A stretch of DNA of 64,000 nucleotides from Nitrospirales bacterium (lineage in GTDB: Bacteria; Nitrospirota; Nitrospiria; Nitrospirales; UBA8639): the NCBI GenBank assembly GCA_965223765.1, contig OZ245016.1, forward strand, positions 594,654-658,653. The letters are read 5' to 3'. The position numbers were made by a program, and so were the translations under genes. The notes under the pieces are model-generated. The model was not told where the DNA came from, did not search any database, and was given only the letters and a program-made list of their open reading frames with translations. Position 1 is the first letter of the stretch. The number at the start of each line of letters is the position of its first letter. Below, piece by piece: positions 6,716-24,082 of this stretch.

Positions 6716-8341
6716 TTATTGGGTAAAGCATGTTATCGCTTTGCATAGAATCTGATCTGATTCTCCATAGTGCTCAATACTTTGCGTGAGAAGAAATTCT
6801 CCAGCTCGCATTACGTGTTCTGATCCGTACGCGCGCGTCAAGTCTTTACTTGCCAAGATATAACAAAGAGTGGCTCCGGCAAAAGCAACCGCACGTGGGG
6901 CCATTTGTGGCCACGAGTCACTGATTCCTCGTTGATAGGTATCAACGATGGTCTGGATGGTCGTATACCAAGAATTGTCTGCAGATGAATTTAAAGCCCA
7001 ATAGACGTAATGCCCAAGAAACATTCCCAGATCCAAAGCTGGGTCGCCCCAACTGGAGCTGCGTTCGAAGTCGATCACACCTATTTCCCCATCCCGGAAC
7101 AATACATTTTTAGGATGAAAATCCAGATGCAGAAAACAAGGTTGCGCGACTTGCTCGCTGGCAAGCTTGAGATTCTTCAGATTGCTAAATGTATCTATTG
7201 AGAACTTTTCTGATGGAAGGGCCACGGTATACAGATCGAGAATCGACTTCCAATGTTTCTGGTCGGCCTCTGGAGTACCCCATAGAACTGGGGCATGGGG
7301 TATCGTATGGCATTTCCTGAGAAATTGGCAGGCCTTGCTAGCGATGACTGGATCAAAAATGCCTCGCTGAAGGTTGTCTTGTAGCGAAGAGCCGTGGGGA
7401 CAGACTTCAGACAACACAACGATCCACGTCTTTTTATCAAAGTGAATCACTGTAGGAATTTCAAAATCCGTATTGAGATGCGTGGCCAACCATTTCAGGA
7501 CTTTCCGTTCGACTGAAAGACGTTCCCGGGGTTTCAGAGTGTGAGCTCCGCTCCACTCTTCTATTCCCAGAGCATCTCCAGCATACTTGATGAAGACAAC
7601 ACGTTCATCTTCGAGTCTGGCGCGAAATACCTGATCTGGTTTGTCTGATGATGAGCAAGATAGTTTTTTTATAGGCCCAAGATTGCTTCGGTTCATCACC
7701 GCATGAATTTTCGCTTGCACGATCGTCTGGAGTTCCAGGATACCTTCCTGGCAGATTGCCCAAATTTCTTCACGCTGCTGGCACGTGAGATGATTGGGAA
7801 GGGCTGAGAAGAATCTGCTCTTTCCAGCATCACCTTCAATGAGTGCGGTCCGTAAATCCGCTGAACGTACCGAATACGCGCCTGTTGGCGCTTGAATGAT
7901 GTTGGCATCAACTCCATATTGCCTCTCCAATTCTTCGAGCTTCCTAAATCGATCGTCACCCCGCTTGAGATCAGTCTCACCAAGACAAAACAATAGCGAA
8001 TCTCCATTCTGACAATGGGCAAAATACTTGAGTGCATGTCCAACAGCGGTGTGCGAGGCAATCTCTATTCGAACTTTCTCAAGATTCCCCAAGAAAAGCA
8101 GCCAAATTCGTCGGGCGATCGTGGCATCAAGAGCTAAAGTTGTTCCCGGGATTAATCGAGCCCGATTAGAAATAATAACCACGATTTCATCGATATCGGA
8201 TCGTGTCAGAAGATAACGCACTGCAGCATAGTGCGCGGCATGGGGGGGGCGAAAAGCGCCAGGATACAACGCGATGACACGTCCAGCTGATTTCTTTGTG
8301 GAGATAAATTCCGAGATCTGATGACTCATCGTGCGATTCAT
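6716..8341 (-). CDS. cytidylyltransferase-like domain fused to an APH/methylthioribose-kinase-like phosphotransferase
   Basis: N-terminal YPGAFRPPHAAH (HxGH-type); C-terminal HLDFHPKN...VIDFE...GDPALDLG. Confidence 0.75.
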   Translation of the reverse strand: MNRTMSHQISEFISTKKSAGRVIALYPGAFRPPHAAHYAAVRYLLTRSDIDEIVVIISNRARLIPGTTLALDATIARRIWLLFLGNLEKVRIEIASHTAVGHALKYFAHCQNGDSLLFCLGETDLKRGDDRFRKLEELERQYGVDANIIQAPTGAYSVRSADLRTALIEGDAGKSRFFSALPNHLTCQQREEIWAICQEGILELQTIVQAKIHAVMNRSNLGPIKKLSCSSSDKPDQVFRARLEDERVVFIKYAGDALGIEEWSGAHTLKPRERLSVERKVLKWLATHLNTDFEIPTVIHFDKKTWIVVLSEVCPHGSSLQDNLQRGIFDPVIASKACQFLRKCHTIPHAPVLWGTPEADQKHWKSILDLYTVALPSEKFSIDTFSNLKNLKLASEQVAQPCFLHLDFHPKNVLFRDGEIGVIDFERSSSWGDPALDLGMFLGHYVYWALNSSADNSWYTTIQTIVDTYQRGISDSWPQMAPRAVAFAGATLCYILASKDLTRAYGSEHVMRAGEFLLTQSIEHYGESDQILCKAITCFTQ

Positions 8342-8373
8342 GGATTGGCAGGAATAGGTGATAGAAGAAAAAG

Positions 8374-9867
8374 CTAGAAAGATAGTTGGATGTCGAAACG
8401 CGCTTCGAATGCGGGGTCATCATCAATGAAAGCTTTTCCTGGCATAAAATACCCTGTTCTGAGGCGGAACCGCATATTTTGAATGGCTCGAACCCCAACG
8501 ATAAGATCGATTTCTTTTCCAAGATCTTTGTTGGCGCCGTTTAGGTCGCCTCTGACATCGATATCTCGTAGCTCATCCGAACGCCAATTTTGTTTGTAGT
8601 AGTGGTAGACGATATCTATCGATGTTCTGGGAATGGGCCGAAAGCCAATGCCGACCGTATAGATGTGCATGTTGCTGAGTTCAGGATCGAATAGCACACC
8701 GTAATAGTCAAAGTTCACGACACCTCCGAACTTCCCTGAATTGTTCTGGAACCCAGTCTGCCGAAAATTTCGGTCATTTCCCTTTGATGAATCATTGTCA
8801 CCAGAGCCATATGCGAATCCCAGAGTGAAATACGGTTGGAAAGCAATCTTTCTAGCGATATACGTCGCCCCAACATCAAAGGCAAAACCTCTGATCGCCT
8901 GACCTTGTTGAGTCCCTCCTACAAATGCAGCATCGATCCAGTATCGAAGGCGGGGCTTAAAGAATTCTCTCAAGGTCCCGGATTCGAATAGATCGAATTT
9001 GAACTTCGGCCGTCCGTAGGAGCGAATGCCAACCCAAATCGGATTATCGTCGTTAGAGGATGTATCTTTCCTCTGCAAGACATAACTACTCAAGAATGAC
9101 TTTTGTTTTTGAGGCCCAATCACATATCCTGTTTCGAACAGGAGGTCAAACTGCCGGCGTTTTCGAAAAATATCATCGAAATAGCGATAATCTTCTTCTC
9201 GATCAAGGACTGGGGTTGAGATGGAAGTTTTGAAATGCCAGGGATCAGGGTCAAAGAAAAAACGAATGCCATCCAATTCTTCATTGAGATACCAGCGTCT
9301 TGGCTCAAAAAACTGTTGCCTTCCAACTCTCAGGGCAGATGGAATGGTAAATGGTAATGGAGCCTGAATGAAGAGCTCGTTTACTTGGGCCTCGACTCTG
9401 TTGACCTTCTCGACATTTTCCTGAAAGGTCAATTCATCTTCAATGCCCAACTCGGAAAAAAAATAAAACCCCTGAGGAAAAGTTAAGATAAAGTTCACAT
9501 CTAATCCGGGAGTGAAACGAAGACGATCTTGTTGATTGTTCTTGTCAAGATTGAGGTTGTCTTGCCAGGTGGTGTCTACATTCAATGCTCCTGTAAATGT
9601 CAGAAGGGTGTTGCCGATTGTCGCTTGAATTTGTGAATCGGGACGGAGTCTCTCGTCATCCCCACGCAGTGCGATGGCGTTGGTTTCTTTTTCGAGTTCT
9701 TTCTTTTGTTGGTCCGGGTCTGTTTCGACAGAAGGTGGAGGAGCCACAGTCGCGGCATGTACCATTTCAATTTTCCACCATGGAACATGATCGGAGCAGG
9801 CAAGGACTAAAACGTACAGAACTCCCAGAAGCCAGATGTTTGTTCGTCGAGACACGATGGACGTCAT
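8374..9867 (-). CDS. alginate export (AlgE-like) outer-membrane porin
   Basis: beta-strand pattern, VGRQQF...WY...DG, GSGD...FRQTGFQNN, DLGKEIDL, terminal Phe. Confidence 0.8.
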   Translation of the reverse strand: MTSIVSRRTNIWLLGVLYVLVLACSDHVPWWKIEMVHAATVAPPPSVETDPDQQKKELEKETNAIALRGDDERLRPDSQIQATIGNTLLTFTGALNVDTTWQDNLNLDKNNQQDRLRFTPGLDVNFILTFPQGFYFFSELGIEDELTFQENVEKVNRVEAQVNELFIQAPLPFTIPSALRVGRQQFFEPRRWYLNEELDGIRFFFDPDPWHFKTSISTPVLDREEDYRYFDDIFRKRRQFDLLFETGYVIGPQKQKSFLSSYVLQRKDTSSNDDNPIWVGIRSYGRPKFKFDLFESGTLREFFKPRLRYWIDAAFVGGTQQGQAIRGFAFDVGATYIARKIAFQPYFTLGFAYGSGDNDSSKGNDRNFRQTGFQNNSGKFGGVVNFDYYGVLFDPELSNMHIYTVGIGFRPIPRTSIDIVYHYYKQNWRSDELRDIDVRGDLNGANKDLGKEIDLIVGVRAIQNMRFRLRTGYFMPGKAFIDDDPAFEARFDIQLSF

Positions 9868-9976
9868 AACGTCGCTGGTCTGTAGGCTCTAGACACGCGC
9901 ATGACGTCCAAGAGTGGTTCGAAAAGTCTGCGCTGAACAGAAGAGTCTCTATAAAAACATGGCCGCATCTTGATTC

Positions 9977-11788
9977 TCACGTGACAGGTTCAGAGACCGA
10001 CGGATATTCGAACTCGGTTTGTTGGCGATAGAGCATACTGTAGTACCCATTCTGATTCTTAAGCGCTTCGTGTGTGCCTTGCTCAACGATTGCGCCATCC
10101 CGAAGAACAAGAATTTGATCAAACTGATCCATGCAAAAAAATTGGTGGGCGATAAATAGCGTCGTTTTCCCTTCTTGAACCTGTGCAATGGCTTTTCGGA
10201 TAAGAGTAGCCGATTCAATATCCACAGCCGATGTGGGTTCATCTAAGATGAGAATCGACGGACGTTTAATGAAGGCCCTGGCTAGGCAAATTCGCTGGCG
10301 TTGCCCGCCAGAGAGAGTGTTTCCTTTCTCTCCAACGATCGTGTCGTAGCCGTCCGAGAGCGCCATAATGAAGTCATGAGCATACGCTTGCTGGGCGGCA
10401 GTCTTCATTTCCTGAAGCGTCGCATCTGGTTTTCCATAGGAAATATTCTCGGCAATGCTGGCGCCAAATAGAACGGTATCCTGAAGCACAATGCCAATCT
10501 CGTGTCGTAATGACTCGCGCTGGTAATGCGTGATATCCACGCGATCGATCATGATATGTCCTTCCTGAGCATCATAGAGACGAAGGAGCAAGCTCACGAT
10601 CGTTGACTTCCCGGCTCCCGATGCGCCAACCAGCGCGACGCGTTGACCGGGAAGGATGTGAAACGAAATTTCGTTCAAAACGGTTTGATTCTTTTGGTAA
10701 CCAAAAGAGACCCGATCAAACGTCAGGTCTCCTTTCAGGTTACCAGCGGGTACAGCATGAGGGGCTTCCGTGATTTCGGGCTCGATCTCTAGCAGCTCGG
10801 CGATTCTCGTCGCACTCACCGACACCTTTGCAAACCTGGCGGAAAGCTTTCCTAAATCGCGGATAGGTTTGAAGAAGCTTCTGACATAGGCGACAAAGAT
10901 TAAGAGATCGCCGGGCAACATGCGGCCTTTCAAAACGTACCAGGCCCCAAAGAACACGGTGCAGGCGACTCCAATCGCGCTGATCAATGAGACCACCGTC
11001 GTAACAGCAGCCGAGGTTCTAGCTGTCTGAATGCCGGCTTCCAAATTCTTTGCACTTTCCTCTTCAAGACGGTCTTTTTCGTATTCTTCCCGTCCAAAAG
11101 CCTGTATGAGTGAGATAGAGGACAAGGCTTCGTTGACCCGTGAATGAATCTTTCCTTCCTGCCTGCGTTGGTATCGTACGGACGTCCTGATCTTCAGATT
11201 GAGAAGAAGGAGGATGCATCCGAGAACGGGCAGCGTCAAAAGGATGACGAGACTCAGTTCCCAGCTCAACATAAACATCACAATAGACATGCCAACCAGC
11301 ATGAGGACGTGGGCAATAGCCTTGAGTGCCCAGTCGGTAAACGCTTCTTTTAAGGTCGTCGTGTCATCCGAGAATTTCGTTAGAATCTCTCCAGTCGGCA
11401 CTCGATTGTGAAAAGAAAGAGACAGCCGTTGGAGATGCGCGAAGAGTTCTCTTCGCAACGTATAGACTAACTCGTGTCCGATTTTTGTGGTGGTATAGAT
11501 TTGGAAATAGGACAAGCTCCCACCCAGGATCGCGAAAAGCGCGATAGAGGCGGAGACAACGAAGAGGGGGAGAAGTGTTTCATCTTGTAAGAAGGCAGTC
11601 AAAAACGTCAGGGTCGGCGGCAATGGATTAGCCAAGAGTATGTAGTCAACCACGATTTTCAATGGCCATGGTGCTAGCAATTGTGTCGTGATCACTCCGA
11701 TGAGACACAAAGCTGCCAAACACAGTTTCCCTTTCACATTGAGCAGATGGGTAGAGATGATACCCCTGAAGGTACGACCATTAAGCAT
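9977..11788 (-). CDS. ABC exporter, fused permease/ATPase
   Basis: TM domain, Walker A GASGAGKS, LSGGQRQR signature, ILILDEPTS. Confidence 0.93.
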   Translation of the reverse strand: MLNGRTFRGIISTHLLNVKGKLCLAALCLIGVITTQLLAPWPLKIVVDYILLANPLPPTLTFLTAFLQDETLLPLFVVSASIALFAILGGSLSYFQIYTTTKIGHELVYTLRRELFAHLQRLSLSFHNRVPTGEILTKFSDDTTTLKEAFTDWALKAIAHVLMLVGMSIVMFMLSWELSLVILLTLPVLGCILLLLNLKIRTSVRYQRRQEGKIHSRVNEALSSISLIQAFGREEYEKDRLEEESAKNLEAGIQTARTSAAVTTVVSLISAIGVACTVFFGAWYVLKGRMLPGDLLIFVAYVRSFFKPIRDLGKLSARFAKVSVSATRIAELLEIEPEITEAPHAVPAGNLKGDLTFDRVSFGYQKNQTVLNEISFHILPGQRVALVGASGAGKSTIVSLLLRLYDAQEGHIMIDRVDITHYQRESLRHEIGIVLQDTVLFGASIAENISYGKPDATLQEMKTAAQQAYAHDFIMALSDGYDTIVGEKGNTLSGGQRQRICLARAFIKRPSILILDEPTSAVDIESATLIRKAIAQVQEGKTTLFIAHQFFCMDQFDQILVLRDGAIVEQGTHEALKNQNGYYSMLYRQQTEFEYPSVSEPVT

Positions 11789-13862
11789 TGGAAGCCTTCG
11801 ACTCGGAAAGCGGGACTATCCGTTGTTGGGTTTGCCAGAGTGTTTGAAAGGAATGGAATACGATATTGGGCCACTGCCGAAGTTCGGCAAGGAGCTGGTC
11901 CAAGAACAGGAACGCTTCCGTATCCATGACTTTGTGATGCAGCAGGATACCGATGAGGTCGAGTTCATGCATCTGCTTGAGGAAACACGTCGCGATGTCT
12001 TCCGGTCCTTTGAGCTGTGGGCCACCTTTCCAGGTGCAGAGATCGAGGGTCGTGGAAATTTCTGTAAATGAGTAGCCTGTGACAGGGGGTTTCCCGTTAT
12101 CTTTGGATAGGATATGGAACCCCAGTTCATCAAGGACCTGGAACGTATCGGTTGTACAACGATTCCAGGGTGGTGTGAATACCGGAAAGAATCGTATGGG
12201 AAATATGGATTCAAGGATGGTTTTCCCCTTGGCTATATCGTGCATTTGCTCTTGGAAAGAACGGCTTGGTCCAAACTCACATTTTCGGCCAACGTTCTCG
12301 TGATTGTGATGTGACAAGCCATGTTGGTTCAGACTCACGAGGGCGGAACTGATTCGGTTGCAATCCTTCAGAAACCGAATACCACCCGGAGTGAGTTTTT
12401 CTGGAATGATCTGAAGATTCAATGGAACATCGTACGAGAGTGTGATATCCCACAAATGCCGGAGAGATTCTTCGTCATCATCGATGTCGTCGTCTCGTAA
12501 AAAGACGTGAACGGTTTGACGAGTTTCGGCTAATCCTTCAAGTCCTCTTCGAAGGTGGTCTTGCCATTCGGACCTCGAGTCTGCGTGCCAGTCGAGTGTC
12601 TTCTGAACAAATGGAGCTGCAGCCTTGGACCACTCAATAAGCCCATCAAGTAGCAGTGGAATGTTTTTCGCACCTTGAATGTCAGGAAGAGATCGTGGAA
12701 GGCTTGCCTCTGTATCGAGTGTGTCCCGTATCGTTTTGGCCAGGTAAGCAGGTTGGAGTTTATCCGGGTCGAGGATGGTGACGATGCCCCGTTTCTGGAG
12801 TTTTTTGGCTCGAATGCGTTGTTCTTCGTTCCCTCTTCCCATGAAGGGGAGCACAAGAGCCCGGATGCCCGTTGAAATAATATTCATGCAGGTGTTGTAG
12901 CCAGCCATGCTGATCGAGAGATCGGCGTAGGTGAGATATGCCAGGAATCGGTTGGTATAGCGCTGCAGGACAATATAGGGTTTATTGCGGCAGCGTTGCT
13001 GCAGGTTCCTATAGTCCTCATCAGACATGTAGGGGCCCGCAAACATGATCAGCCGGTGTGGGAAAGACGATGTCAGCAAGTCACTAGCGATGATTATGCA
13101 TTCCATCAGTTCAGAGCCAACTCTTCCCCCACCGATGCTGGCAATAATAATAGGACTTTCTTCAGGACTTGCGGGAATATCCAGTAGTGACTGGGGGTGA
13201 GATGCCGAAGCGGTCTGCGAAACAAACCCGGTGTAGTGAATGTTGCATGTGAGCGCTGGTACCAGCGAAAACGTTTCCTCCAATGTCTGAAAGTCTGGAT
13301 CGGCATGAACAAGTAATAGGTCAAAATAACGATTCATCAGGGCGACAACCCATTCTTCATGTCTGGTCTGGTCTGATTTGCTCACCAGAATATCTCTCAA
13401 GCTGCAGACGACTTTAGTCTGTCCTCCTGACAATCTGACTCTTGCTAAAAGTGGCACAAGCTCACAGGCGAAACGTTTTCGGCCAAACGGAAACAGTTCG
13501 AGGATCAGCAGATCGGGTTGGATGCGCCCGTATGCCTGTAACATGAGTGCTCGGCGAGCTTTGATGATTTCCTCAACCGGTTGTTCGGAGTCTGCACCGG
13601 AAAGACCTTCAAATTCAGCATCGGATTTAAGGGGTGGAAGATTAATGATGTGGACCGGCGGCGGTACCGAGACATCTGATAATAATTCTCCCCCATTCAG
13701 AAAGTAGACGTCATAGTCTGTTAGCGCTCGGACAATCTCCAGGCTTCGAATCATGTGCCCCATTCCCAGAACATGTTGGCAATAAAACATAATTGTTTTC
13801 ATCATATTCCAATCATGCTCTTTTTGACGGTAAGCAGTGAAGCGATTCAGTCGCGATATCAC
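11781..13862 (-). CDS. GT-B glycosyltransferase (GT28-like) fused to a polysaccharide-deacetylase-like domain
   Basis: YCQHVLGMGH, ELFPFGR, SIGGGRVG, SMAGYNT; C-terminal FLRDDD...QHGLSHHNH...FTPPWN. Confidence 0.8.
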   Translation of the reverse strand: MISRLNRFTAYRQKEHDWNMMKTIMFYCQHVLGMGHMIRSLEIVRALTDYDVYFLNGGELLSDVSVPPPVHIINLPPLKSDAEFEGLSGADSEQPVEEIIKARRALMLQAYGRIQPDLLILELFPFGRKRFACELVPLLARVRLSGGQTKVVCSLRDILVSKSDQTRHEEWVVALMNRYFDLLLVHADPDFQTLEETFSLVPALTCNIHYTGFVSQTASASHPQSLLDIPASPEESPIIIASIGGGRVGSELMECIIIASDLLTSSFPHRLIMFAGPYMSDEDYRNLQQRCRNKPYIVLQRYTNRFLAYLTYADLSISMAGYNTCMNIISTGIRALVLPFMGRGNEEQRIRAKKLQKRGIVTILDPDKLQPAYLAKTIRDTLDTEASLPRSLPDIQGAKNIPLLLDGLIEWSKAAAPFVQKTLDWHADSRSEWQDHLRRGLEGLAETRQTVHVFLRDDDIDDDEESLRHLWDITLSYDVPLNLQIIPEKLTPGGIRFLKDCNRISSALVSLNQHGLSHHNHENVGRKCEFGPSRSFQEQMHDIAKGKTILESIFPIRFFPVFTPPWNRCTTDTFQVLDELGFHILSKDNGKPPVTGYSFTEISTTLDLCTWKGGPQLKGPEDIATCFLKQMHELDLIGILLHHKVMDTEAFLFLDQLLAELRQWPNIVFHSFQTLWQTQQRIVPLSESKASNA

Positions 13863-15189
13863 CCTGCCGAGCTAACGTCAGGTAATGCTCCATTCGTCGA
13901 TTCCACCCGGGTTGCAATTGAAGCAGTTCTCGACATGCCTTGCGGATGAGTTGAATCTGCATATGCCACCGCACTCTGTCTGGTGACATCTCCCAGTCCA
14001 CATGGCGCGCATAGGCTAGACAAAATGAGCGAGTCATGGGTGCAATGAAGTCGACCGCATAGTCGTAAAAATATAACTGTGCAAGAAAATCCGCCACGTC
14101 CTGAAGCGGATCACCTTGAGCCACATCATCAAAATCGCAGAGAACAATCCTGTGCTTGGAGAGCATTAACTGCTCAAGGTGGAAGTCGCCATGAATCACA
14201 GACGTTGGAGCTGATGAAAAGTCTGTTACCTGTTCTTCTAATTCAAGAAGGAAGGAGCACAGCGATTTCTTGTGTTCAGGGAATACCTGATAGATTTTGG
14301 CGGACTGTTTTCGAGCTTCAATCACTCGATCTTTGTGGCTCACAGTCCTCTCCATCATCAGGCGACTTTTATGAAAAACCGCCAGATTCTTGCCCACGAT
14401 TGTGAGCAAGTCATGAAAATTTGTGCGATTGATCATTCTGCGCAGGGGATAGCCATAGATGCCATCTTGCCAAACGGTATTGATCTCTTTCGTAAGCCCT
14501 AATGGTTTGGCAACCGTGAATCCACGGGAATTGGCGAGAGATTGCGACCAGAAATATTCATTCCGGTGAAACACACTCGTGCCACATTCATTGGCAAATG
14601 TCTTTGCATAGATGGCGTGGGCTGGCGAAGTAGATCGGGGGTTCTCGCGAAGGTCATATCGTATTGTACAGCGCGACTCCGGTTTGTACCGAACCAAATT
14701 GGGCCGAATGCCTCGATTTTTCTGCGACCAATCTAATGCGGATTTTCGTTCCATGGGAAGCGGTAACGTGTTTTCTACCGTCTGTATGTCTAGCAACTTT
14801 GGCAGATGATGTAGCTTTGGATCATTGGGAAACGCCCAGATAATCATGTCTAGGTTAGGTAGATGGACCAACGGTTTGCCGAATGCCGGAGATGTCAGAG
14901 GTGTAGGTGGAAGCTTTGTAAAAACTTTCTTGCTATGCCCTCCCATGTAGGCTCTGCCATACAACTTGAGCGGCTGTTGTCTATGAGCAGACATGTCGCT
15001 GATCTGTAAGAGGTATCCGATTCCCAAAAAAGTCTTATGTTGAAAGCCTTCTTTGAAGGATTGTTTCATAAGTAGATAGTCAATCTTGCATGAAGCAATC
15101 CTCAGCCTCCCATCCGAAAAACCTGGGAGGTGATCTTGGAAGAGCCCTCTCATGGTCTGAGCATCTTGAAATGATTGAAATCGTGTCAT
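13813..15189 (-). CDS. aminoglycoside-phosphotransferase-family kinase
   Basis: RYKPESRCTIRY, IHGDFHLEQ, CDFDD, GDPLQDVADF. Confidence 0.82.
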   Translation of the reverse strand: MTRFQSFQDAQTMRGLFQDHLPGFSDGRLRIASCKIDYLLMKQSFKEGFQHKTFLGIGYLLQISDMSAHRQQPLKLYGRAYMGGHSKKVFTKLPPTPLTSPAFGKPLVHLPNLDMIIWAFPNDPKLHHLPKLLDIQTVENTLPLPMERKSALDWSQKNRGIRPNLVRYKPESRCTIRYDLRENPRSTSPAHAIYAKTFANECGTSVFHRNEYFWSQSLANSRGFTVAKPLGLTKEINTVWQDGIYGYPLRRMINRTNFHDLLTIVGKNLAVFHKSRLMMERTVSHKDRVIEARKQSAKIYQVFPEHKKSLCSFLLELEEQVTDFSSAPTSVIHGDFHLEQLMLSKHRIVLCDFDDVAQGDPLQDVADFLAQLYFYDYAVDFIAPMTRSFCLAYARHVDWEMSPDRVRWHMQIQLIRKACRELLQLQPGWNRRMEHYLTLARQGDIATESLHCLPSKRA

Positions 15190-15194
15190 CTCAG

Positions 15195-15419
15195 TTAATC
15201 ACTAGTCAGAAATCTAGAAAAGAATATGGGAATGTTGAAAAAAGCCGCCAGCGGTGTTTTCTTGGTGAGCAACTCAGAAATCGTCTGCTCGATAATTTTG
15301 GATTTCTTGAGGATCTTATGGCTAATTTCTGCCAAGCTGCGTGTGGTAGATTTATACCGCTGTGCGGGAATGGTTAGAGCAGATTCACAATAGTCAGACT
15401 GGCGACCTAGCGTAGTCAT
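15195..15419 (-). CDS. possible small coupled ORF, 74 aa
   Basis: ATG overlaps the upstream TGA; stop is 5 nt before the next ATG, filling the operon gap; no recognisable motif. Confidence 0.35.
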   Translation of the reverse strand: MTTLGRQSDYCESALTIPAQRYKSTTRSLAEISHKILKKSKIIEQTISELLTKKTPLAAFFNIPIFFSRFLTSD

Positions 15420-16654
15420 AGCTGCCTCTCACTCTTGCTCCGAAAAAGATATTCCTGCGCGTGTAACACGTATTGTTTCGCGCACAATGCCCGGTTAGGG
15501 TGAATTTTGGATGTGGCGCGCAGCGCCTTTGCCAGCCACTTATGTGCACAATAGATATCTATGAGTGCCGGGTTGAGAGCAATCGCCATGGATTCATATC
15601 CATGAATAAAGGCTTTTTGGACTTCGACGAATCGACCCCGTCCTTTGTCTTTGAATGCAAGCTCAGTCAAAAATGAGGCAACATCATATTCACGGTCGCC
15701 ACATGCCATCCGATCAAAATCCACCAACCCCAATCCCGAGTCGCTGACTAACCACTGCTCTGGATGAAGGTCGGTGTGTAACGGTACAAGCTCTTGCCCA
15801 TTCCATCTCGCGTGAGCCAATTGTAAGTGGTTGAGTAAAGTCTCAACATCAGCCTGCAGATGAGGGTGATGCTGTGTAAGCATCGCACCATGCCTTCTGG
15901 CCTGCCTCAGCACAGTTTTGTTGTCGAATATGATGGTTGAGGATAGGCGACATTGATGAAGCGTCGCGATGGCTTCTCCTATCTTATAAGCCAGAGGAAG
16001 GCCTTTGGCTTCAAGGAGCTGGTGAATGGTAACGGGTGTTCCTGGTACCGTCTTTTGCCACAGTGTTCGCGTTGATCCATCCCATCCAACAGGTTCAGGC
16101 ACAGAAAACCCGAGTGCGCCTCGGTTTGCGACATCCCACAGAGCCATGCCATCCGTGTGAATTCTTTGTCCCACATCAGAATCAAACACCTTCGCAAATT
16201 CCGCGAAGCCGTGTGGGCCTGTCGAGAACTGGATCGTACATCGATGGTGAGGATGATAGTGAACGACGTGTGCCTGGTCACTTGTCATGAGAACATGGCG
16301 CAACATAGGGAGAGCCGGATCTTCAGGAAATCGTGTGAGTCGAAGCCACCCCATCCCGTTCATAAAGATCGTGGTTTCTTCAGCAGATGAAGGTGCCTGA
16401 AGATGTTGTGATAACTCAATCAGGCAAATGTGTTGCAGTTTATCTTGTGTCTGAAAAACAAGCGTGGCGTAGACCTCTTGATAGGGAGAGAATCTTCCTG
16501 ACATACGTGTCCAGATTCGATCTGGTCGCCACCACCCCAAGCGGCTTCCTCTCTCATTAATGGACTCAATAAAGAATTGATCGTCTGAAAGACGGCCGAT
16601 TTGATCGAGTGAACCGGCGTCGAGTAGATCAGGTATCTTTAGGACAGTCGTCAT
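15416..16654 (-). CDS. aminoglycoside-phosphotransferase-family kinase
   Basis: HYHPHHRCT, LHTDLHPEQ, VDFDR, GDREYDVASF. Confidence 0.8.
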   Translation of the reverse strand: MTTVLKIPDLLDAGSLDQIGRLSDDQFFIESINERGSRLGWWRPDRIWTRMSGRFSPYQEVYATLVFQTQDKLQHICLIELSQHLQAPSSAEETTIFMNGMGWLRLTRFPEDPALPMLRHVLMTSDQAHVVHYHPHHRCTIQFSTGPHGFAEFAKVFDSDVGQRIHTDGMALWDVANRGALGFSVPEPVGWDGSTRTLWQKTVPGTPVTIHQLLEAKGLPLAYKIGEAIATLHQCRLSSTIIFDNKTVLRQARRHGAMLTQHHPHLQADVETLLNHLQLAHARWNGQELVPLHTDLHPEQWLVSDSGLGLVDFDRMACGDREYDVASFLTELAFKDKGRGRFVEVQKAFIHGYESMAIALNPALIDIYCAHKWLAKALRATSKIHPNRALCAKQYVLHAQEYLFRSKSERQL

Positions 16655-18087
16655 AGGGATCGTTCCGAGGCTGGGACTAGAGGACCCCCAACCGAAAGGT
16701 ATTGACTGTCTGAAGTCAGGCGATCGATCAGCTTCACGATTCGTTCTATTTTTACGAAGGTTCCTGGTTTGGCCTTTTTAAGACAGCGATACACGCGTTC
16801 AATAACAAGCGCCGTTGCCACATACCATCGTAGGGCAGGTTCGGATACTTCCCAGTTCACCTGCCTTTGGTAACTTTGCAGAAAAACTTTGATGAGTTCA
16901 TCCATTCGAGATTCGGTTAGTCCCACTTCCAGGCCTTGATACAGGAGATAGGAGACGAAACTTCCCAGATCATGGAGTGGTAATCCGATTCCAATATCAT
17001 CGAGATCAATGATGGAAACCGATGTCCCGTCCACAACAAAATTTTTAAAATGTAAATCTCCATGTAAGGTGACAGCGTCGCCTTGTTCGAAGCGAGTAAC
17101 ATTGTTTTTGATAAATGCGACAATATTGTCAAGCGTCTTGATTGTATGAGGTTTCAGACCAGAGAGAGACGGCTTGAAATGCTCTAATTTGGCGAGGCGA
17201 TCTTCCAATATGATCGGTCGGGCTCCCTGAACTGATAAAGAATGAAGAATGGCGACCGTCCTTCCTGCATCTTCCACAAGTTTCGTAAAGTGCGGACTTT
17301 TCATGTTGTACTGCTGCAACGTCGTTCCTGGTACAGCAAGTTGCCATAGCACGTTTTTGGCGCAGTCATACCAAATAGGCTGCGCCATTCTGAATTCACC
17401 AAGTTTTCTTGCCTCGGTCTTCCAGAGGTCGGACATGACAGCATAGGCATGGTTGCCATGGTGTTTATCAGCATAGGTTTTCGCGTACAAAGTCATCGAT
17501 TTCTTTTTGGCCAATTCTCGGCTGTGCAGGTGAAGCATGACTTTCACGGTGCAGCTATACCTGGGGAGGTAATTCATGACTTCCGGCGAGACACGGAGAA
17601 TTGCCCAATCACCTCGAAAGGTATGGGTCAGCAGCTTGGGCAGCCATTGATCTCGTAAACGAGCGGGATCGGTCAGTTCAGGCAGAGCGGTAAGTTTGCG
17701 GTCATTCGGGAAACACCATATGACCATGTCCCATTCTGGTATATGGATTAAGGCTTTTCCGCATGTCGGGGATATCAGTGATTGGGCTCGTGCTTGGGTA
17801 TAACGAGACCATGAATCTCCAGGCTGAAAAATCTGGGCTGAATACAACTGGGCGAACACTTGTTGTGTACCGGTATCGTGAATACTGAGTTGATAGCAAA
17901 CGGTACAGGGTTTGGTCTGTTTGTATTTCACGTAGACTATCTCGCAGTCCGTGACTCTGAATCGGTGTCGTAGTTGTTCGCTCTCAAACAACAGGTCTTG
18001 AAATTTCTCCGACATCGTCGAAGCATCGAGCGCTTTCGACAGTTGAGGGAGTGTGTCATCAGATGGAATATCTCGAGCACCAATCAT
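16651..18087 (-). CDS. aminoglycoside-phosphotransferase-family kinase
   Basis: WCFPNDRKL, LHGDLHFKN, IDLDD, GLPLHDLGSF. Confidence 0.82.
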   Translation of the reverse strand: MIGARDIPSDDTLPQLSKALDASTMSEKFQDLLFESEQLRHRFRVTDCEIVYVKYKQTKPCTVCYQLSIHDTGTQQVFAQLYSAQIFQPGDSWSRYTQARAQSLISPTCGKALIHIPEWDMVIWCFPNDRKLTALPELTDPARLRDQWLPKLLTHTFRGDWAILRVSPEVMNYLPRYSCTVKVMLHLHSRELAKKKSMTLYAKTYADKHHGNHAYAVMSDLWKTEARKLGEFRMAQPIWYDCAKNVLWQLAVPGTTLQQYNMKSPHFTKLVEDAGRTVAILHSLSVQGARPIILEDRLAKLEHFKPSLSGLKPHTIKTLDNIVAFIKNNVTRFEQGDAVTLHGDLHFKNFVVDGTSVSIIDLDDIGIGLPLHDLGSFVSYLLYQGLEVGLTESRMDELIKVFLQSYQRQVNWEVSEPALRWYVATALVIERVYRCLKKAKPGTFVKIERIVKLIDRLTSDSQYLSVGGPLVPASERSL

Positions 18088-18146
18088 AAACAGCTCAGGA
18101 ATGTTTGAGGGATTTCAGAAGGTTCTTTTGCCATAAGACATCTGAG

Positions 18147-20153
18147 CTATCCAACCACATAGCGCCGGAGAAAAGTGTCCGCTCCATTCGTTCGAATCAA
18201 ACAGGTGGCTCCATCGTGCGCAAACCGGTCAAAGGCGTATTCTCCAGGGCATGAGGAATGCCTCACAAAATAATAGTCGTGAAAGATCTGGTCATCTCGC
18301 GAAATCTTGATGCACAGAGCCGAAGCCTGATTTGGCGTGCAGGAACGGTCATCGTGAAAAACAGGCAACTTCTGAACTGATATCCCGGGAGCCTCTGTTT
18401 TATAAGGCATGATAACCGTGTGGTAGCACATACTGGTTTGTCGGCTTGAGAGTTTCACGATAGGGGCTTGATGTTTTGTCCCATACATGCGAGAGATGTA
18501 GCTGTCTTGGATAGTAGGCTGAATGTTCGCGTCCAATGGTTGAGCGAGTATCAGATGGGGCGCATGAATAATGAGCGAATCATTCGAAGCGACACATGAG
18601 GTTTGCCCCCAGGCTTCATCCGAGAGATGAAAGAGCAGATCATAGTCATGAGGGTCTTCAGCGATGATAAGATCAGATAGAATCCAATAGTCTGGCAACA
18701 CAAAAAAGATCTTGCGTTCATGAATGACCCGATATTCATGGCTCTTTGCGATTCCATGGAGGAAGTCAAATCCTGGTTGCGTGGTGAATTTTTGTAATCG
18801 AAAATCTGGCTGGGGCCCTTTGATTTTAAATCGCGTTTTATCAAAGACATAGCGTGTTTGATTTTTTCCGTCGATCAGCACGGTGTTGTGCGCGGCAGTC
18901 TCCCGAAATCGAACGCGCCAATTGATCTGGCCTGATTCGTCATAGGTATAACGTCCTGGGTCAATGATTAAGGATTTTCCATAAGCGGCCATTTCAAAAC
19001 TCAGCAGATCAAAATGCCCATGATTTCCGGCGCCTAGGGGGCCACAATCGAATATCAAATAGCGCTCACCTTCGTAGGGTTCCGACCCATCCCCCCAGCC
19101 ACTGCGGAGAATATAGTAGCCACTATGACTGAATTCCTTGGATCTCTCCTGAGGCGGAGTTCCACGCACACCTTGTGAGGCTACATACCGAAACTCCTGA
19201 TTGCCGTAGAGTTGAAACCCCTGTTCCAGAAGATCCAAGAAATTTCGGCTATCTCCATCACCGAGTGAAGGAATGGTTCCGTCGGGTTTATGGACATAAA
19301 GGGAAAACTCCAAAGCTTTCTGAATCTTCTCATCGACAATGGCAGGAAAAGTGATTTGATTGAGTACGGCCAAACGTCGAACCCACAAAAAATTCTTGAG
19401 GACTAAGTGATGGTAGTCCGTGGATAGTTCGCAATGAACGCCGTCAGGCAACAGATCTGATTGGATGTTCTTGACGAGTTCCGTTTTCGCAAGCTCCAGC
19501 CAGTTAGATGCTTCACGAAGCTCTGGGAAGACGACTCCCGCAAGAAAGATAGAACAGAGCTCCAAGGTCCGGTGGTTGCGTGCAGGCGTGAGATGTGTAC
19601 ACAAATAACTGACTTGTTGGGACAGAGACGAGAGAAACTTCAGGTAAAAATCCGAGTCTATGCGAGCCGTGTGTTCCTGAGTCACGAAAAAGTAATGCGC
19701 AAAAATCCAGTTCTGAATTCGACGTCCCGCAACATCGCTAGGCAAAAAATTGAGTGGAACCAGATTTATCCAGGACTCTGTGAGTTCAACCCATTTATTG
19801 AGACATTTTTGATCTTGGGTGTCGCCAAAGGCCATTCCCAGGCCCACCGCGTAATAAAACTTGTGAAGTAAGATAAGCCATTCCACATCCTGACTTGGAT
19901 TTTGAAGCCACGGAATGGAACGAAGGTTATGATAGACTTCCCCGTTGAACTCGAATGTGTCATCAAGAATGTTTTCGATTTTTTCCCGTCGGGTTTCGAC
20001 AGGATCGATCACGGGGAAATAGGTGACAGATTCTCGGGAACGGAAATGTTCCAAAATGTCTTGAGGGGTCCATTGAGCATACGGTTCCTGAAAAATCGTC
20101 AATGCTGACTGATGCCATTGGCGTGAGGATGTGCGTGAACGTGTCAGTGGCAT
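18147..20153 (-). CDS. heparinase II/III-family polysaccharide lyase-like protein
   Basis: DGVHCELSTDYH, SGYYILRSGW, FDCGPLG..HGHFDLLSF, IDPGRYTY, AAHNTV. Confidence 0.87.
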   Translation of the reverse strand: MPLTRSRTSSRQWHQSALTIFQEPYAQWTPQDILEHFRSRESVTYFPVIDPVETRREKIENILDDTFEFNGEVYHNLRSIPWLQNPSQDVEWLILLHKFYYAVGLGMAFGDTQDQKCLNKWVELTESWINLVPLNFLPSDVAGRRIQNWIFAHYFFVTQEHTARIDSDFYLKFLSSLSQQVSYLCTHLTPARNHRTLELCSIFLAGVVFPELREASNWLELAKTELVKNIQSDLLPDGVHCELSTDYHHLVLKNFLWVRRLAVLNQITFPAIVDEKIQKALEFSLYVHKPDGTIPSLGDGDSRNFLDLLEQGFQLYGNQEFRYVASQGVRGTPPQERSKEFSHSGYYILRSGWGDGSEPYEGERYLIFDCGPLGAGNHGHFDLLSFEMAAYGKSLIIDPGRYTYDESGQINWRVRFRETAAHNTVLIDGKNQTRYVFDKTRFKIKGPQPDFRLQKFTTQPGFDFLHGIAKSHEYRVIHERKIFFVLPDYWILSDLIIAEDPHDYDLLFHLSDEAWGQTSCVASNDSLIIHAPHLILAQPLDANIQPTIQDSYISRMYGTKHQAPIVKLSSRQTSMCYHTVIMPYKTEAPGISVQKLPVFHDDRSCTPNQASALCIKISRDDQIFHDYYFVRHSSCPGEYAFDRFAHDGATCLIRTNGADTFLRRYVVG

Positions 20154-20163
20154 CGAGTTACCC

Positions 20164-21540
20164 TTAATCTACCTTCGGGGCGTATTCGATGGGGGTGCCG
20201 GGTTGAGTGAGTGGAGAAGGAGCGCTGTCAGGTCGGCCGACGCCTTTTTGCCCCGCATGAGACTGGAAGAGACGAGCCAACCCTGAGATATTGGATCGGG
20301 AATCGAACATGTGAAGGACTTTTTTTCTTCCCGCTTTGGCTAATGTTGTTCGAAGTTCTGAGTCGGTTAAAAGTTCTTCTAATGCATCAGCTAAGGCTCG
20401 CGCGTTTTTCTGAGGGACTAACAGGCCGTCTTGTCGGTGTGTGATAAGTTCTGGAATACCTGATACATCAGTCGAGACGATGGGAATTCCACAGGCCATG
20501 GCTTCTGCCAAGACATTCGGAATTCCATCTCGATCCCCATTATCTAAAACATGACAGGCTAACGTGAAAATCGAGGCCTGTTGATAGATTTTGCCTAGTT
20601 GATCTTGCGTGACCCCCGGTTTCAGGGTGAGCGTGTTATCCAGATAAAGCCTGTGTCTTAAGCTTTTGATATGAGATGTCTCTTCATCGAACTCTCCTAA
20701 AATCACACTCTGAAAACGATGTCCCCGTTGTTGGAGGATTCCCAAAGCTTCAACGAGATAGGAAAACCCCTTTTTCTTCACGTGACGCCCAACTGATAGA
20801 ATCACGGGAACGTCGGAGGGGGGGACGGAGGCTGGCAGGAACCGCCCAGTATTGACCCCGTGATACACCCGATGCACTTTGCCTGCATCCTGAGGGAATA
20901 ATCTTTGAAGATGCTCATGGTTAAATCCTGTGCAGGTGGCGACGAAGGTGGTTCGTTGCATCTTGATCGATAACAGGTTCCCAGGGTTTAACTTTGGCAA
21001 ATAAATATCTTTTGCGTGGGCAGTAAAGCTAAAAGGAATACCTGTAAGGGAACTGGCAAACATCGCCATCGTCGTGGCGCCATGACAAAAATGTGCATGG
21101 AGGTGACGAATCGAAGGTGACTGGATTACCTTATTGGCGATAAACCCAGCTCGAAAAAATTCTTTGTACATAGCCTTTTTGGGTTCAAGACCCCAGGTAT
21201 GACGAAGAGAGAAACTAAGCCAGATGGCTTCCATCAACACTTTCACATACTGTAGAGGGCGCTGGGAGAAGAGATGAAGATGAGCCAGGTAATAACGCGG
21301 AACGTTGGCCTTCAGCCACGGCCAAAACGATGAATCAATAGCAGTCGGTTCCTCAGGTAAATACGTGACGGGGCTTTGGATATTGTTGGCCACGAGTGAT
21401 GTTGTGGTCTCCCTGGGAAAGGCTGAAAAAATTTTGAAACGAAATCCCAAGCGTTCAAGTTCATGAATTTCATTCGTGATAAAGGCTTCAGAGTTTCGAG
21501 GAAACCCTTTGAGGATGTAGGCAATAGTAGAGTGGCTCAT
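20164..21540 (-). CDS. GT4 glycosyltransferase
   Basis: FPRNSEAFI, HLHAHF, SFTAHAKDIY, DRDGIPNVLAEAMA. Confidence 0.9.
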   Translation of the reverse strand: MSHSTIAYILKGFPRNSEAFITNEIHELERLGFRFKIFSAFPRETTTSLVANNIQSPVTYLPEEPTAIDSSFWPWLKANVPRYYLAHLHLFSQRPLQYVKVLMEAIWLSFSLRHTWGLEPKKAMYKEFFRAGFIANKVIQSPSIRHLHAHFCHGATTMAMFASSLTGIPFSFTAHAKDIYLPKLNPGNLLSIKMQRTTFVATCTGFNHEHLQRLFPQDAGKVHRVYHGVNTGRFLPASVPPSDVPVILSVGRHVKKKGFSYLVEALGILQQRGHRFQSVILGEFDEETSHIKSLRHRLYLDNTLTLKPGVTQDQLGKIYQQASIFTLACHVLDNGDRDGIPNVLAEAMACGIPIVSTDVSGIPELITHRQDGLLVPQKNARALADALEELLTDSELRTTLAKAGRKKVLHMFDSRSNISGLARLFQSHAGQKGVGRPDSAPSPLTQPGTPIEYAPKVD

Positions 21541-22736
21541 GGTAGTACGACTTGGTAATGCTCAGATGTTGATTGTTTTTCTTGAGCATCAGATGTGATT
21601 TGCTTGAAAAGATTGTGAATCACACCAATGTTCTTGGATACACAAAAATCCTCTTCCACGGTTCTTCTTGCCGCGGTGCCTAATCGTTTTCGATGCTTAG
21701 GGTTTTGGAGTAGCATTTTTAACACTTCAGCCAATGTTTCCGGTTCACCGGGCAGAGTCAAAATCCCATCGTGGCCATCATGGATGAGCTCAGGAATGCT
21801 GGCGATAGCCGTAGAAACGACTGGGAGACCCATCGCCATGGCTTCGACAAGGACATTGGGGATGCCATCACGGTCACCATCTTCGGCAATTTGACAAGGC
21901 AAGACGAAGACGGAGGTCTTCTGATACCAGTCGATAATGCCATTCTGCGGCATTTTCCCCAGGAGGCGAACACAATCACTGATGTCAAATTGGTGAATCA
22001 TCTGTTTCAGGCTCTGTTCGAGCGGGCCATAGCCCACCAGCACACATTGGAAGTGGCACCCAGCTCTTTTTAGTGAGGCACAGGCTTGAATGAGAACAGG
22101 GAACCCTTTTTTGGGACGGAACCGTCCGATGCTCAGAATTAGCGGGCGCGTTTCATCTCTACCAAAAATTTCTTGGGAGTTAGTATGGAACACATTCAGA
22201 TCCACCCCGTGGTAGACCCGATAAATTGGTATATCGGAATGGACGCATTCTTCCAGATAATTTTTGTTGTACTCGGTACAGGTCAGAACGAACTGTGCTC
22301 TAGTCACCTTACGCGATAAATCTTCCTTAGATGAAAGGAAGAGATCTTTGGCATGGGTGGTAAAGCTATAAGAGATTCCGGTGAGGGTATGTACCTGTAG
22401 GGCTACGTCGGTGGGTTCGGAGACATAATGAGCATGAAGATGTGTGATGCCATATTCATGAACCTTTTCAGTGACCCATTCGGTCCACAAGAATTGTTGG
22501 ATGACGTTCCCCTTTCCTCCATTGAATACAACAGGTCCATACAATACTGGAGCCTTGAGTTGACGAATATGTGGGTGTGTCTCTGTGTCAGAGGGGGGGC
22601 GTAAAGAGAGGACGACAAGATTCAGCCCGAGACGTTCTAGTTCCAGTATTTCTTGAAGAATAAATGTCTCCGACAGTTTCGGAAAAATCTTGACGAGATA
22701 CCCAATCGTTGGTACCGCGTTTGATGTAGATGACAT
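21537..22736 (-). CDS. GT4 glycosyltransferase
   Basis: FPKLSETFI, HLHAHY, SFTTHAKD, DRDGIPNVLVEAMA. Confidence 0.9.
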   Translation of the reverse strand: MSSTSNAVPTIGYLVKIFPKLSETFILQEILELERLGLNLVVLSLRPPSDTETHPHIRQLKAPVLYGPVVFNGGKGNVIQQFLWTEWVTEKVHEYGITHLHAHYVSEPTDVALQVHTLTGISYSFTTHAKDLFLSSKEDLSRKVTRAQFVLTCTEYNKNYLEECVHSDIPIYRVYHGVDLNVFHTNSQEIFGRDETRPLILSIGRFRPKKGFPVLIQACASLKRAGCHFQCVLVGYGPLEQSLKQMIHQFDISDCVRLLGKMPQNGIIDWYQKTSVFVLPCQIAEDGDRDGIPNVLVEAMAMGLPVVSTAIASIPELIHDGHDGILTLPGEPETLAEVLKMLLQNPKHRKRLGTAARRTVEEDFCVSKNIGVIHNLFKQITSDAQEKQSTSEHYQVVLP

Positions 22737-22759
22737 ATGAATCTGACTGCCTCATGCGA

Positions 22760-24082
22760 TCATGCGGGTTGTAGCAAGGCATGATGGAAGGGTTCTATAG
22801 GGTAATGTCTCTTTTGACTATCGGAACGAGCATGACCCCAGCTTCCATTCATTAATAAATTCAGGATAGCCATAGTAAGGGTGGGTAAGGCATTGAGGTT
22901 TACAGCAGGTCCAGGGGTTAGGTTTCTTAGATCGTGGGGTTGGCATAAAAGACCTTCTAATTTTTCACAGAAAGAATCTGGGTTGAGTTTGTCTGGATGA
23001 ATCGCTTGGAACCACCCTAATTTCGCCATGCGCTGGGCACGTATCCATTGTTCTTCAACGGGGCGCGTTCTTGGAATTACTAATGCTGGTTTGCGTAAGG
23101 AGAGTAATTCACAAATGGTTCCATACCCACCCATGGATACGGCTACATCTGCGGCATCTAGGTAACTCATCACATCATCGGAAAAAGTCAGTGTCCTGAG
23201 GGAAGGCCATTGAGAGGCTTGAAGCTCTAATTCAAGACGAGTGGCTTCGGGCATTTCTGGACCGAAAATCAGAGTGCTGTACACTCGCTTGTGTTGAGAT
23301 ATGCGTGGCATGCTTGCCAGGTATTGTTGAAAAAGCTGCACACCATCTTCCCCCCCTCCGGCAGTGACGAGCACCATTTGATCATCTGCCGTCAGGCCTA
23401 ATTTCTTTCTCATATGTTCTCGGGTATGTTGTCCTGACTCTCGACGGAGATATCCACAATATTGGGTTTTGAGTTGAAGCGCTGGCGGGAACTGATATTC
23501 TGAACAGGCTTTGAACACTTCTGGAGAGCCTAGTACAAAAATACGATCGTAATGGGCTTCGAGCGCTTGAAAGTATTTCTGCTTTTTCCAGATGGCTCGT
23601 GTTACCTGTGGACTATCCAGAATGTCACGCAACAAAAGTGTGACGATGGTTTCAGGATGATAGGTTTTTAAATGGGCTAACGCTGGCTCCAATTCATTCT
23701 CGACCCCATAGGGTTTTTTGTCGACGATGACCATGTCAGGTTGAAAATTTACTAATGCGGCGAGAATGAGCTCAGTTCGGAGTTTGACGATGTCCCGCGT
23801 ATGTTCCTTCAGATATTTTGGGCCATAGCCATTGCATTTTGTTCGGGAAAGACAGGGCAATTTAATATAGTCAACACCCTCTGGGATGCGAAAACTATGC
23901 ACCATTGGAGAACCAGAAATGATCAAAATGGACAGGTCGGGAATCGACTTCATGAGAAATTGGCAAATAGAGAGGGTTCGACGAATGTTTCCCAACCCAA
24001 AGGTATCGTGGGAATAAAAGACTACCCGCTTAGTGTTCGCATTGACCATGTCTTTGAATTTTTTGAGTGAATGGAGTTTCAT
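22760..24082 (-). CDS. GT-B glycosyltransferase (GT28-like), first gene of the glycan operon
   Basis: YSHDTFGLGNIRR, YIKLP, LRDILD, VTAGGGEDG, SMGGYGT, EQWIRA. Confidence 0.85.
   Translation of the reverse strand: MKLHSLKKFKDMVNANTKRVVFYSHDTFGLGNIRRTLSICQFLMKSIPDLSILIISGSPMVHSFRIPEGVDYIKLPCLSRTKCNGYGPKYLKEHTRDIVKLRTELILAALVNFQPDMVIVDKKPYGVENELEPALAHLKTYHPETIVTLLLRDILDSPQVTRAIWKKQKYFQALEAHYDRIFVLGSPEVFKACSEYQFPPALQLKTQYCGYLRRESGQHTREHMRKKLGLTADDQMVLVTAGGGEDGVQLFQQYLASMPRISQHKRVYSTLIFGPEMPEATRLELELQASQWPSLRTLTFSDDVMSYLDAADVAVSMGGYGTICELLSLRKPALVIPRTRPVEEQWIRAQRMAKLGWFQAIHPDKLNPDSFCEKLEGLLCQPHDLRNLTPGPAVNLNALPTLTMAILNLLMNGSWGHARSDSQKRHYPIEPFHHALLQPA

Follow-up and report, generated by a model that had tools for sequence, protein, structure and literature searches.

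Several enzymes that couple a kinase to a nucleotidyltransferase have been described. HldE is a bifunctional D-beta-D-heptose 7-phosphate kinase and heptose 1-phosphate adenylyltransferase that provides envelope glycan synthesis with an ADP-sugar, uniting a sugar kinase and an HxGH-class (PF01467) adenylyltransferase in one polypeptide, and NadR and RibF likewise fuse an HxGH adenylyltransferase to the kinase that makes its substrate, in the metabolism of NAD and FAD. In salvage, the APH-family kinase AmgK places a phosphate on the anomeric carbon of a free sugar and MurU then makes the nucleoside diphosphate (NDP)-sugar, forming an optional bypass (PMC5371407), while FKP, the L-fucokinase/GDP-fucose pyrophosphorylase of Bacteroides, is a salvage enzyme that carries kinase and pyrophosphorylase in one chain (PMC11982464). 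We analyzed a 64,000-nucleotide stretch of the genome of a Nitrospirales bacterium (GenBank assembly GCA_965223765.1, contig OZ245016.1, positions 594,654 to 658,653; hereafter the window), in which the open reading frame at 6716..8341 on the minus strand, uninterrupted over 541 codons (541 aa + stop; P0001), encodes a nucleotidyltransferase-kinase fusion. Databases call this protein a "phosphotransferase" only, and its nucleotidyltransferase half has been overlooked. The original prediction, made from the letters of the window, had proposed an HxGH-superfamily N-terminal domain (N-domain), marked by the motif FRPPHAAH, joined to an APH/MtnK-like kinase; Pfam APH, profile searches, structural models and Foldseek bear out both halves.

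Although the fusion would work like HldE, FKP, NadR, RibF and the AmgK/MurU pair, it belongs to none of these families. The kinase of HldE has a ribokinase/PfkB fold and is N-terminal, whereas that of the fusion has an APH/protein-kinase-like fold and is C-terminal; the two steps of HldE are non-consecutive, with a phosphatase between them, and the fusion has no sequence membership in that family. The comparison with HldE drawn in the original prediction is apt as a functional analogy. AmgK, an anomeric kinase of N-acetylmuramic acid (MurNAc) as well as of N-acetylglucosamine, and MurU, a MurNAc 1-phosphate uridylyltransferase, are, unlike the two halves of the fusion, separate proteins, and MurU has a GlmU/RmlA-type nucleotidyltransferase fold, not the HxGH fold. 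FKP pairs a GHMP kinase with a GlmU-type pyrophosphorylase, and neither fold was found in the fusion; the kinase is of the P-loop type in NadR and has the riboflavin-kinase fold in RibF, both enzymes of cofactor metabolism. The concept of a kinase-nucleotidyltransferase fusion is known and recurrent, and this protein overturns no concept; the combination of an APH fold with an HxxH fold and the nucleotidyltransferase subfamily are new, and literature searches found no description of the fusion or of the gene cluster to which it belongs. Such a new fold pairing for one-chain sugar activation could serve enzymatic NDP-sugar synthesis.

The N-terminal domain resembles NadD and PPAT

Residues 20-205 (7727..8284, minus strand, as for all coordinates within the fusion) correspond to a NadD/PPAT-like HxxH nucleotidyltransferase domain, assigned from a structural model, Foldseek and a profile search against PDB sequences. 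Residues 24-41 read ALYPGAFRPPHAAHYAAV and contain FRPPHAAH (residues 30-37; 8231..8254), which in an alignment of 33 homologous sequences represents the nucleotide-binding signature GxFxPxHxxH, with H34 and H37. The string [YF]PGAFRPPH is near-invariant across ~70 homologue clusters, and FRPPHAAH is, judging from these sequences, no chance occurrence. Two further motifs follow: SNRAR (residues 58-62; 8156..8170; R60 and R62 invariant), a proposed phosphate-binding loop after strand 2, whose second Arg is kept in a sister clade of the N-domain too, and RSADLR (residues 159-164; 7850..7867; L163 and R164 invariant), which the profile alignment identifies as the counterpart of the ISxTxxR motif of NadD and PPAT.

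Single-sequence searches with the N-domain (Pfam, NCBIfam and phmmer against the PDB) gave sub-threshold matches at most. PF01467 reached 12.1 bits (E 0.23), under its gathering cut-off of 21 bits, and the NadD models TIGR00482 and NF000846 scored 15-21 bits against cut-offs of 112-329 (E 1.6e-4 to 0.2). The sister-clade protein P0143 clears PF01467 (23.2 bits) and matches the N-domain at E 1e-21; because P0143 passes while the N-domain itself scores below the cut-off, membership of the N-domain in PF01467 is transitive only. A profile of 27 N-domains excised from their loci, run against PDB sequences, retrieved the NadD structures 2h29 (5e-4), 1kam and 4s1o, plus VPA0413 (3h05). The profile alignment places GAFRPPHAAH on GxFxPxHxxH and VRSADLR on ISSTxIR, RSADLR pairing with the motifs ISSTMIR and IRSTDIR of NadD 2h29 and VPA0413 3h05.

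As Foldseek with the full-length model returned kinases only, the N-domain (residues 20-206) was modelled on its own with AlphaFold, giving a mean predicted local distance difference test (pLDDT) score of 94.7. Against the PDB this model matched NadD (1kaq, 1kam), PPAT (6b7b, 1b6t) and Plasmodium NMNAT with probability 1.0, E 6e-6 to 1e-4 and template modelling (TM) scores of 0.5-0.7, and all of the top 50 matches were adenylyltransferases. Foldseek on a predicted structure, the check that had been proposed for this gene, pointed in this way to NadD/PPAT for the N-domain and to MtnK (2pun) for the kinase. The model predicts for the N-domain the Rossmann-like alpha/beta fold of NadD, PPAT and GCT, and would place it in the HxGH superfamily (PF01467 clan); the (H/T)xxH motif after strand 1 is present as GAFRPPHAAH and the second motif, of ISxTxxR type, as RSADLR. 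NadD/NMNAT and PPAT (CoaD) are the nearest solved folds and sequences, with both motifs aligned, whereas the N-domain differs from them by a basic residue replacing the Asp of FDP and by its own SNRxR and GDDRF motifs.

The C-terminal domain is an APH-fold kinase

Pfam, Foldseek and profile searches assign residues 220-541 (6719..7684) to an APH-fold, MtnK/PsiK-like small-molecule kinase domain. Pfam APH (PF01636) matches residues 271-448 with E 2.8e-15 and 57.2 bits, against a cut-off of 23.2, and the hallmarks of the family are complete. The catalytic loop HxDxxxxN is present as HLDFHPKN (residues 405-412; 7106..7129; placed by alignment), with the catalytic D407; the metal-binding D424 lies with E426 in IDFE (residues 423-426; 7064..7075), the DFG/DxE equivalent, both residues being invariant; and the strand-3 Lys and helix-C Glu are K252 and E278. 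All NCBIfam matches of the kinase half, namely LxmK (1.7e-12), MtnK, thiamine kinase and CotS, were sub-threshold: the MtnK model TIGR01767 scored 24.6 bits against a cut-off of 275, and LxmK (class V lanthionine synthetase kinase, NF038156) 47 bits against 315. Pfam annotation of the operon genes revealed no LxmY/LxmX partner and no precursor-peptide gene.

The full-length AlphaFold model, built from the 33-sequence alignment, reached a pLDDT of 90.6 and a predicted TM score (pTM) of 0.87. Its best Foldseek match in the PDB was 5-methylthioribose kinase (2pun; E 1.8e-12, TM 0.67 on the target), followed by LxmK and PsiK and then by aminoglycoside and macrolide kinases, and the 33-sequence profile run against PDB sequences matched Arabidopsis MtnK (2pyw; 2e-6) and PsiK (2.2e-6). 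Among solved structures, MtnK and PsiK (4-hydroxytryptamine kinase) come closest to the kinase half and have the catalytic loop and the DxE-type metal site in common with it, whereas identity is ~15-17% and the context of the fusion is a glycan cluster, not methionine salvage.

Both active sites are conserved

The alignment of 33 homologues shows as invariant A24, P27, G28, A29, F30, P32, H34, H37, R60, R62, G121, D124, R131, F132, L163 and R164 in the N-domain, and K252, E278, D424, E426, G432 and D433 in the kinase. The motif at H34-H37 reads HAAH in 20 of the sequences, HKVH in 3, and HRAH, HQAH and HANH in 2 each, with others in the remainder; the third position is A, V or N in the fusion family and Gly in the sister clade. 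HAAH had been singled out in the original prediction as a variant motif; it is indeed present, but since the two middle positions vary it represents one state of a variable pair rather than anything special. The nucleotidyltransferase domain averages 52% pairwise identity and the kinase 39%, and the better conservation of the nucleotidyltransferase half indicates that it is under selection. Inactivity of the N-domain, a concern raised at the outset, is not suggested by the alignment, in which all catalytic signature residues are kept in this better-conserved half.

Two homologues from Nitrospirales metagenome-assembled genomes (MAGs), P0007 and P0015 (L007:10001-11563), 53-54% identical to the fusion, carry NLNFHPKN and NLNFQPKN in the catalytic loop together with intact nucleotidyltransferase motifs. 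This Asn loop may reflect either a pseudokinase state or a variant introduced by assembly.

The fusion is linked to a glycan-export cluster that often lacks it

Full-length homologues fall into ~70 clusters. A scan of species genomes found full-length copies in Nitrospirales, Nitrospira, Methylococcaceae, Methylomonas, Burkholderiales, Nitrosomonas, Rhodocyclaceae, Acidobacteria, Acidimicrobiia and other Gammaproteobacteria, including the isolate Motiliproteus sediminis HS6; Caldilineaceae also carry copies, as seen among the homologue clusters and loci rather than in that scan. When 1.8 billion representatives were searched with the N-domain, fusions of 500-560 aa came first, and most close matches were such fusions, the few short ones possibly being fragments. 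No close kinase-only relative was found in the species-genome scan, where kinase-only matches reached ~30% identity at most. It appears from this that the two halves are kept together, and, as far as these searches tell, their fusion looks obligate.

Linkage was tested by tblastn of 11 operon proteins against 24 fusion-bearing loci. In 19 of these, spanning at least six phyla or classes, the fusion adjoins a cluster comprising a GT28-like glycosyltransferase (GT), two GT4, a heparinase II/III-like protein, one to three APH kinases, a GT28C-DUF2334 protein and an ATP-binding cassette (ABC) exporter, joined in diderms by an AlgE-like porin; the place of the fusion within the cluster differs between loci. 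The five exceptional loci have unrelated neighbours, and in all five genomes the GT28/DUF2334 pair lies elsewhere, as does the heparinase in 4/5. No genome in a sample of 301 from the phylum carried the N-domain without the cluster marker, GT28C-DUF2334.

In the cultured isolate M. sediminis HS6 (L030), a fusion of 31% identity lies by itself in a neighbourhood of RTX, MCP and Mtr cytochrome genes; its GT28 and DUF2334 genes lie on a different contig, and no clear heparinase homologue was found in this organism, which may be the most tractable one for genetics.

Two genomes of this phylum sample carry the N-domain, that of the window and G271, and 11/301 carry the marker (>50% identity). Two clusters without the fusion (G036 and G189) were inspected and have the order GT28, GT4, GT4, heparinase, APH, APH, GT28C-DUF2334, ABC, porin. 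In G036 (L086:12081-16115), the two APH kinases are separated by genes for a histidine phosphatase (His_Phos_1) and an unknown protein of 321 aa plus two additional GT-like genes, at the spot that the fusion occupies in the related fusion-bearing locus L004. The cluster is thus often found without the fusion and the fusion always with the cluster, indicating that the fusion is an optional accessory rather than the source of the core donor. It has the look of an optional module for decoration or salvage; as homologous clusters exist without it, it cannot be an essential supplier of a donor "for the GTs", the consumers named in the original prediction.

The N-domain and the cluster marker were not found in two same-genus genomes (G159 and G222, each 98% complete), and neither the marker nor the fusion was found in any of 24 same-family genomes searched. 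From this distribution the 17-kb operon (6716-24082) looks accessory, and it is probably a horizontally acquired island.

The fusion offers an entry point to the chemistry of a conserved, uncharacterised glycan-export cluster. Its carriers include nitrifiers (Nitrospirota, Nitrosomonas) and methanotrophs, among others, and their biofilm matrix is important for wastewater treatment and the nitrogen cycle.

Phage-type relatives of the N-terminal domain

The N-domain belongs to an unannotated subfamily whose other members are standalone proteins (180-380 aa) or the middle domain of proteins of 600-2000 aa. The sister clade (P0143-P0214) consists of metagenomic or phage-type proteins with the nucleotidyltransferase domain at ~residues 410-600. 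FxPPHxxH, SxxxR, GExD...D.RF, xxTxxR and a C-terminal LPxHL...W helix are common to both clades, and the best viral structural match has a TM of 0.83 and a root-mean-square deviation of 2.2 Å. The large sister-clade proteins carry an N-terminal EKxDGxN (KxDG) motif, spotted by eye, that resembles RNA-ligase motif I, and some also have a 2H (LigT) phosphoesterase or a DUF5661 domain; they may be an RNA-repair or NAD-linked module. A hidden kinase in their N-terminal 415 aa was considered and rejected (hhalign probability 0.3%). The fusion gives a cellular foothold to a nucleotidyltransferase subfamily otherwise known from large phage-type proteins.

Proposed function and alternative explanations

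Considering the MtnK-nearest small-molecule kinase fold, the intact adenylyltransferase-type domain and their seemingly obligate fusion, our best reading, to which we give about an even chance, is a cytoplasmic bifunctional enzyme that phosphorylates a compound X and then transfers a nucleoside monophosphate, probably AMP, onto it, yielding NDP-X for an optional residue or for salvage. In the first step, the C-terminal kinase would use ATP to phosphorylate a sugar-like small hydroxyl compound, at a hydroxyl that may be anomeric or primary by analogy with MtnK, AmgK and related enzymes. In the second, the N-terminal domain would join that phosphate to the alpha-phosphate of a nucleoside triphosphate, releasing pyrophosphate; ATP is the likeliest one because all top structural neighbours are adenylyltransferases. 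NDP-X would then supply an optional residue or decoration to the secreted glycan or glycolipid that the neighbouring GT28/GT4/kinase/ABC/AlgE operon makes, or else the enzyme would recycle that residue through a salvage shunt like those of AmgK/MurU or FKP; as the fusion is optional, either role fits. In this scheme we infer which reaction comes first, which substrate and nucleotide are used, and what consumes the product. Replacement of the housekeeping NadD or CoaD was considered as well and rejected, given three canonical PF01467 (cytidylyltransferase-like) genes, taken at family level, elsewhere in the genome.

Several observations weigh against this proposal. NadD and PPAT, the nearest structures of the N-domain, use ribotide or pantetheine phosphates, not sugar 1-phosphates, and the sister clade is found in phage-like proteins, not in sugar metabolism. 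The expectation that homologous clusters would carry the fusion held only in part, since beyond the 2 marker genomes with the N-domain, a whole-protein search of five of the nine marker-positive genomes lacking an N-domain match found no fusion homologue in any of the five. No glycosyltransferase was specific to fusion-bearing clusters, and a dedicated consumer of NDP-X was therefore not identified. In addition, D407 is kept in 31/33 sequences and is Asn in P0007 and P0015, and the order from kinase to nucleotidyltransferase is assumed.

That order could be reversed, the nucleotidyltransferase adenylylating a phosphorylated or anionic substrate and the kinase then phosphorylating the product to give a phospho-adenylyl donor. 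CoA synthase (PPAT, then dephospho-CoA kinase) and 3'-phosphoadenosine 5'-phosphosulfate (PAPS) synthase (ATP sulfurylase, then adenosine 5'-phosphosulfate kinase) work in this sense, so fusions of an HxxH nucleotidyltransferase to a kinase acting in this order are established. The presence of PPAT among the top structural neighbours, the replacement of the Asp of NadD and PPAT by a basic residue (R31, or K or Q), and the HxAH motif, which recalls HRAH of ATP sulfurylase, all favour such an arrangement. However, the kinase resembles enzymes such as MtnK and PsiK, which act on free small alcohols and sugars, rather than nucleotide 3'-kinases, which are of the P-loop type, ATP sulfurylase falls outside the top 50 Foldseek matches, and the cluster holds no sulfotransferase or comparable consumer, so that we consider the reversed order unlikely.

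We also doubt, on balance, that the target of the kinase half is the glycan or glycolipid itself, with the N-domain nucleotidylating that phosphate or simply binding a nucleotide in a regulatory or scaffold role. The operon is rich in APH kinases (one to three besides the fusion) that presumably phosphorylate its product, an optional gene would suit a decorating enzyme, and the two homologues with an Asn catalytic loop retain an intact N-domain. The kinase of the fusion, however, has just the catalytic core in common with the other operon kinases, HxxH nucleotidyltransferases of the N-domain fold are known for small phospho-substrates only, and the invariant catalytic residues speak against a purely structural N-domain.

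Combining the proposed bifunctional enzyme with its setting, we may speculate, as something of a long shot, that the fusion represents a previously undescribed activation route: a non-canonical donor linked to ADP would be produced jointly by an APH-fold kinase and a new, phage-related type of HxxH adenylyltransferase, and would serve to attach an optional substituent to a phospho-glycan or glycolipid that nitrifiers and methanotrophs secrete. Such a donor could be an ADP-pentose or ADP-sugar; were the nucleotidyltransferase to act first, it could instead be a phospho-adenylyl compound resembling PAPS or CoA.

Dinucleotide salvage of the NadR kind, in which a riboside kinase and a mononucleotide adenylyltransferase would convert, for example, nicotinamide riboside through nicotinamide mononucleotide (NMN) to NAD with loose ties to the cluster, seems to us quite improbable. 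In sequence and in fold the N-domain indeed matches NadD/NMNAT enzymes best, kinases of the MtnK kind bind ribose derivatives, the phage relatives in the sister clade carry the label NMN adenylyltransferase (a database annotation only), and the gene lies away from the cluster in 5/24 loci. Against it stand the low scores of the NadD models (15-21 bits versus cut-offs of 112-329), the three PF01467 genes, canonical at family level, elsewhere in the genome, and the distribution of the N-domain, never seen in a genome without the cluster marker and absent from 299/301 phylum genomes, which would be odd for cofactor salvage.

Least likely, and very improbable indeed, is a degenerate, catalytically dead N-domain on what would be an APH kinase with an N-terminal extension: no curated model reaches threshold on it and the Gly of the third HxGH position is lost, but that position varies in active enzymes of the superfamily, H34, H37, R164 and other motif residues are invariant, the confident model superposes on active adenylyltransferases, and the stronger constraint on the N-domain than on the kinase half speaks against a dead remnant.

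Operon structure and neighbouring genes

The genome of the window is one 3.79-Mb contig in which the fusion is single-copy. The genes upstream of the fusion form one operon with it (8374..24082, minus strand) and were assigned by Pfam, from the fusion outwards, as an AlgE-like porin (8374-9867), an ABC exporter (9977-11788), GT28C-DUF2334 (11781-13862), three APH kinases (13813-15189, 15416-16654 and 16651-18087), a heparinase II/III-like protein (18147-20153), two GT4 (20164-21540 and 21537-22736) and a GT28-like protein (22760-24082), all on the minus strand. Because the downstream gene (6176-6580, plus strand) is convergent, the fusion closes the co-oriented minus-strand run begun at 24082. 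From the porin stop to the start of the fusion there are 32 nt, and a promoter and terminator scan of this gap found no site beyond shuffle expectation.

Between the three stand-alone APH kinases (13813-18087) and the kinase of the fusion, the catalytic core alone is common, at ~25-31% identity over 70-120 residues. A nucleotidyltransferase domain hidden in the N-terminal extensions of these kinases was looked for and rejected. A role in anti-phage defence was likewise rejected, as PADLOC gave no defence-system match for the fusion or three of its neighbours.

In a Nitrosomonas MAG (L001:13501-16068), genes for a UDP-glucose/GDP-mannose dehydrogenase and for an NAD-dependent epimerase come after the cluster, which hints at a uronic acid in the product.

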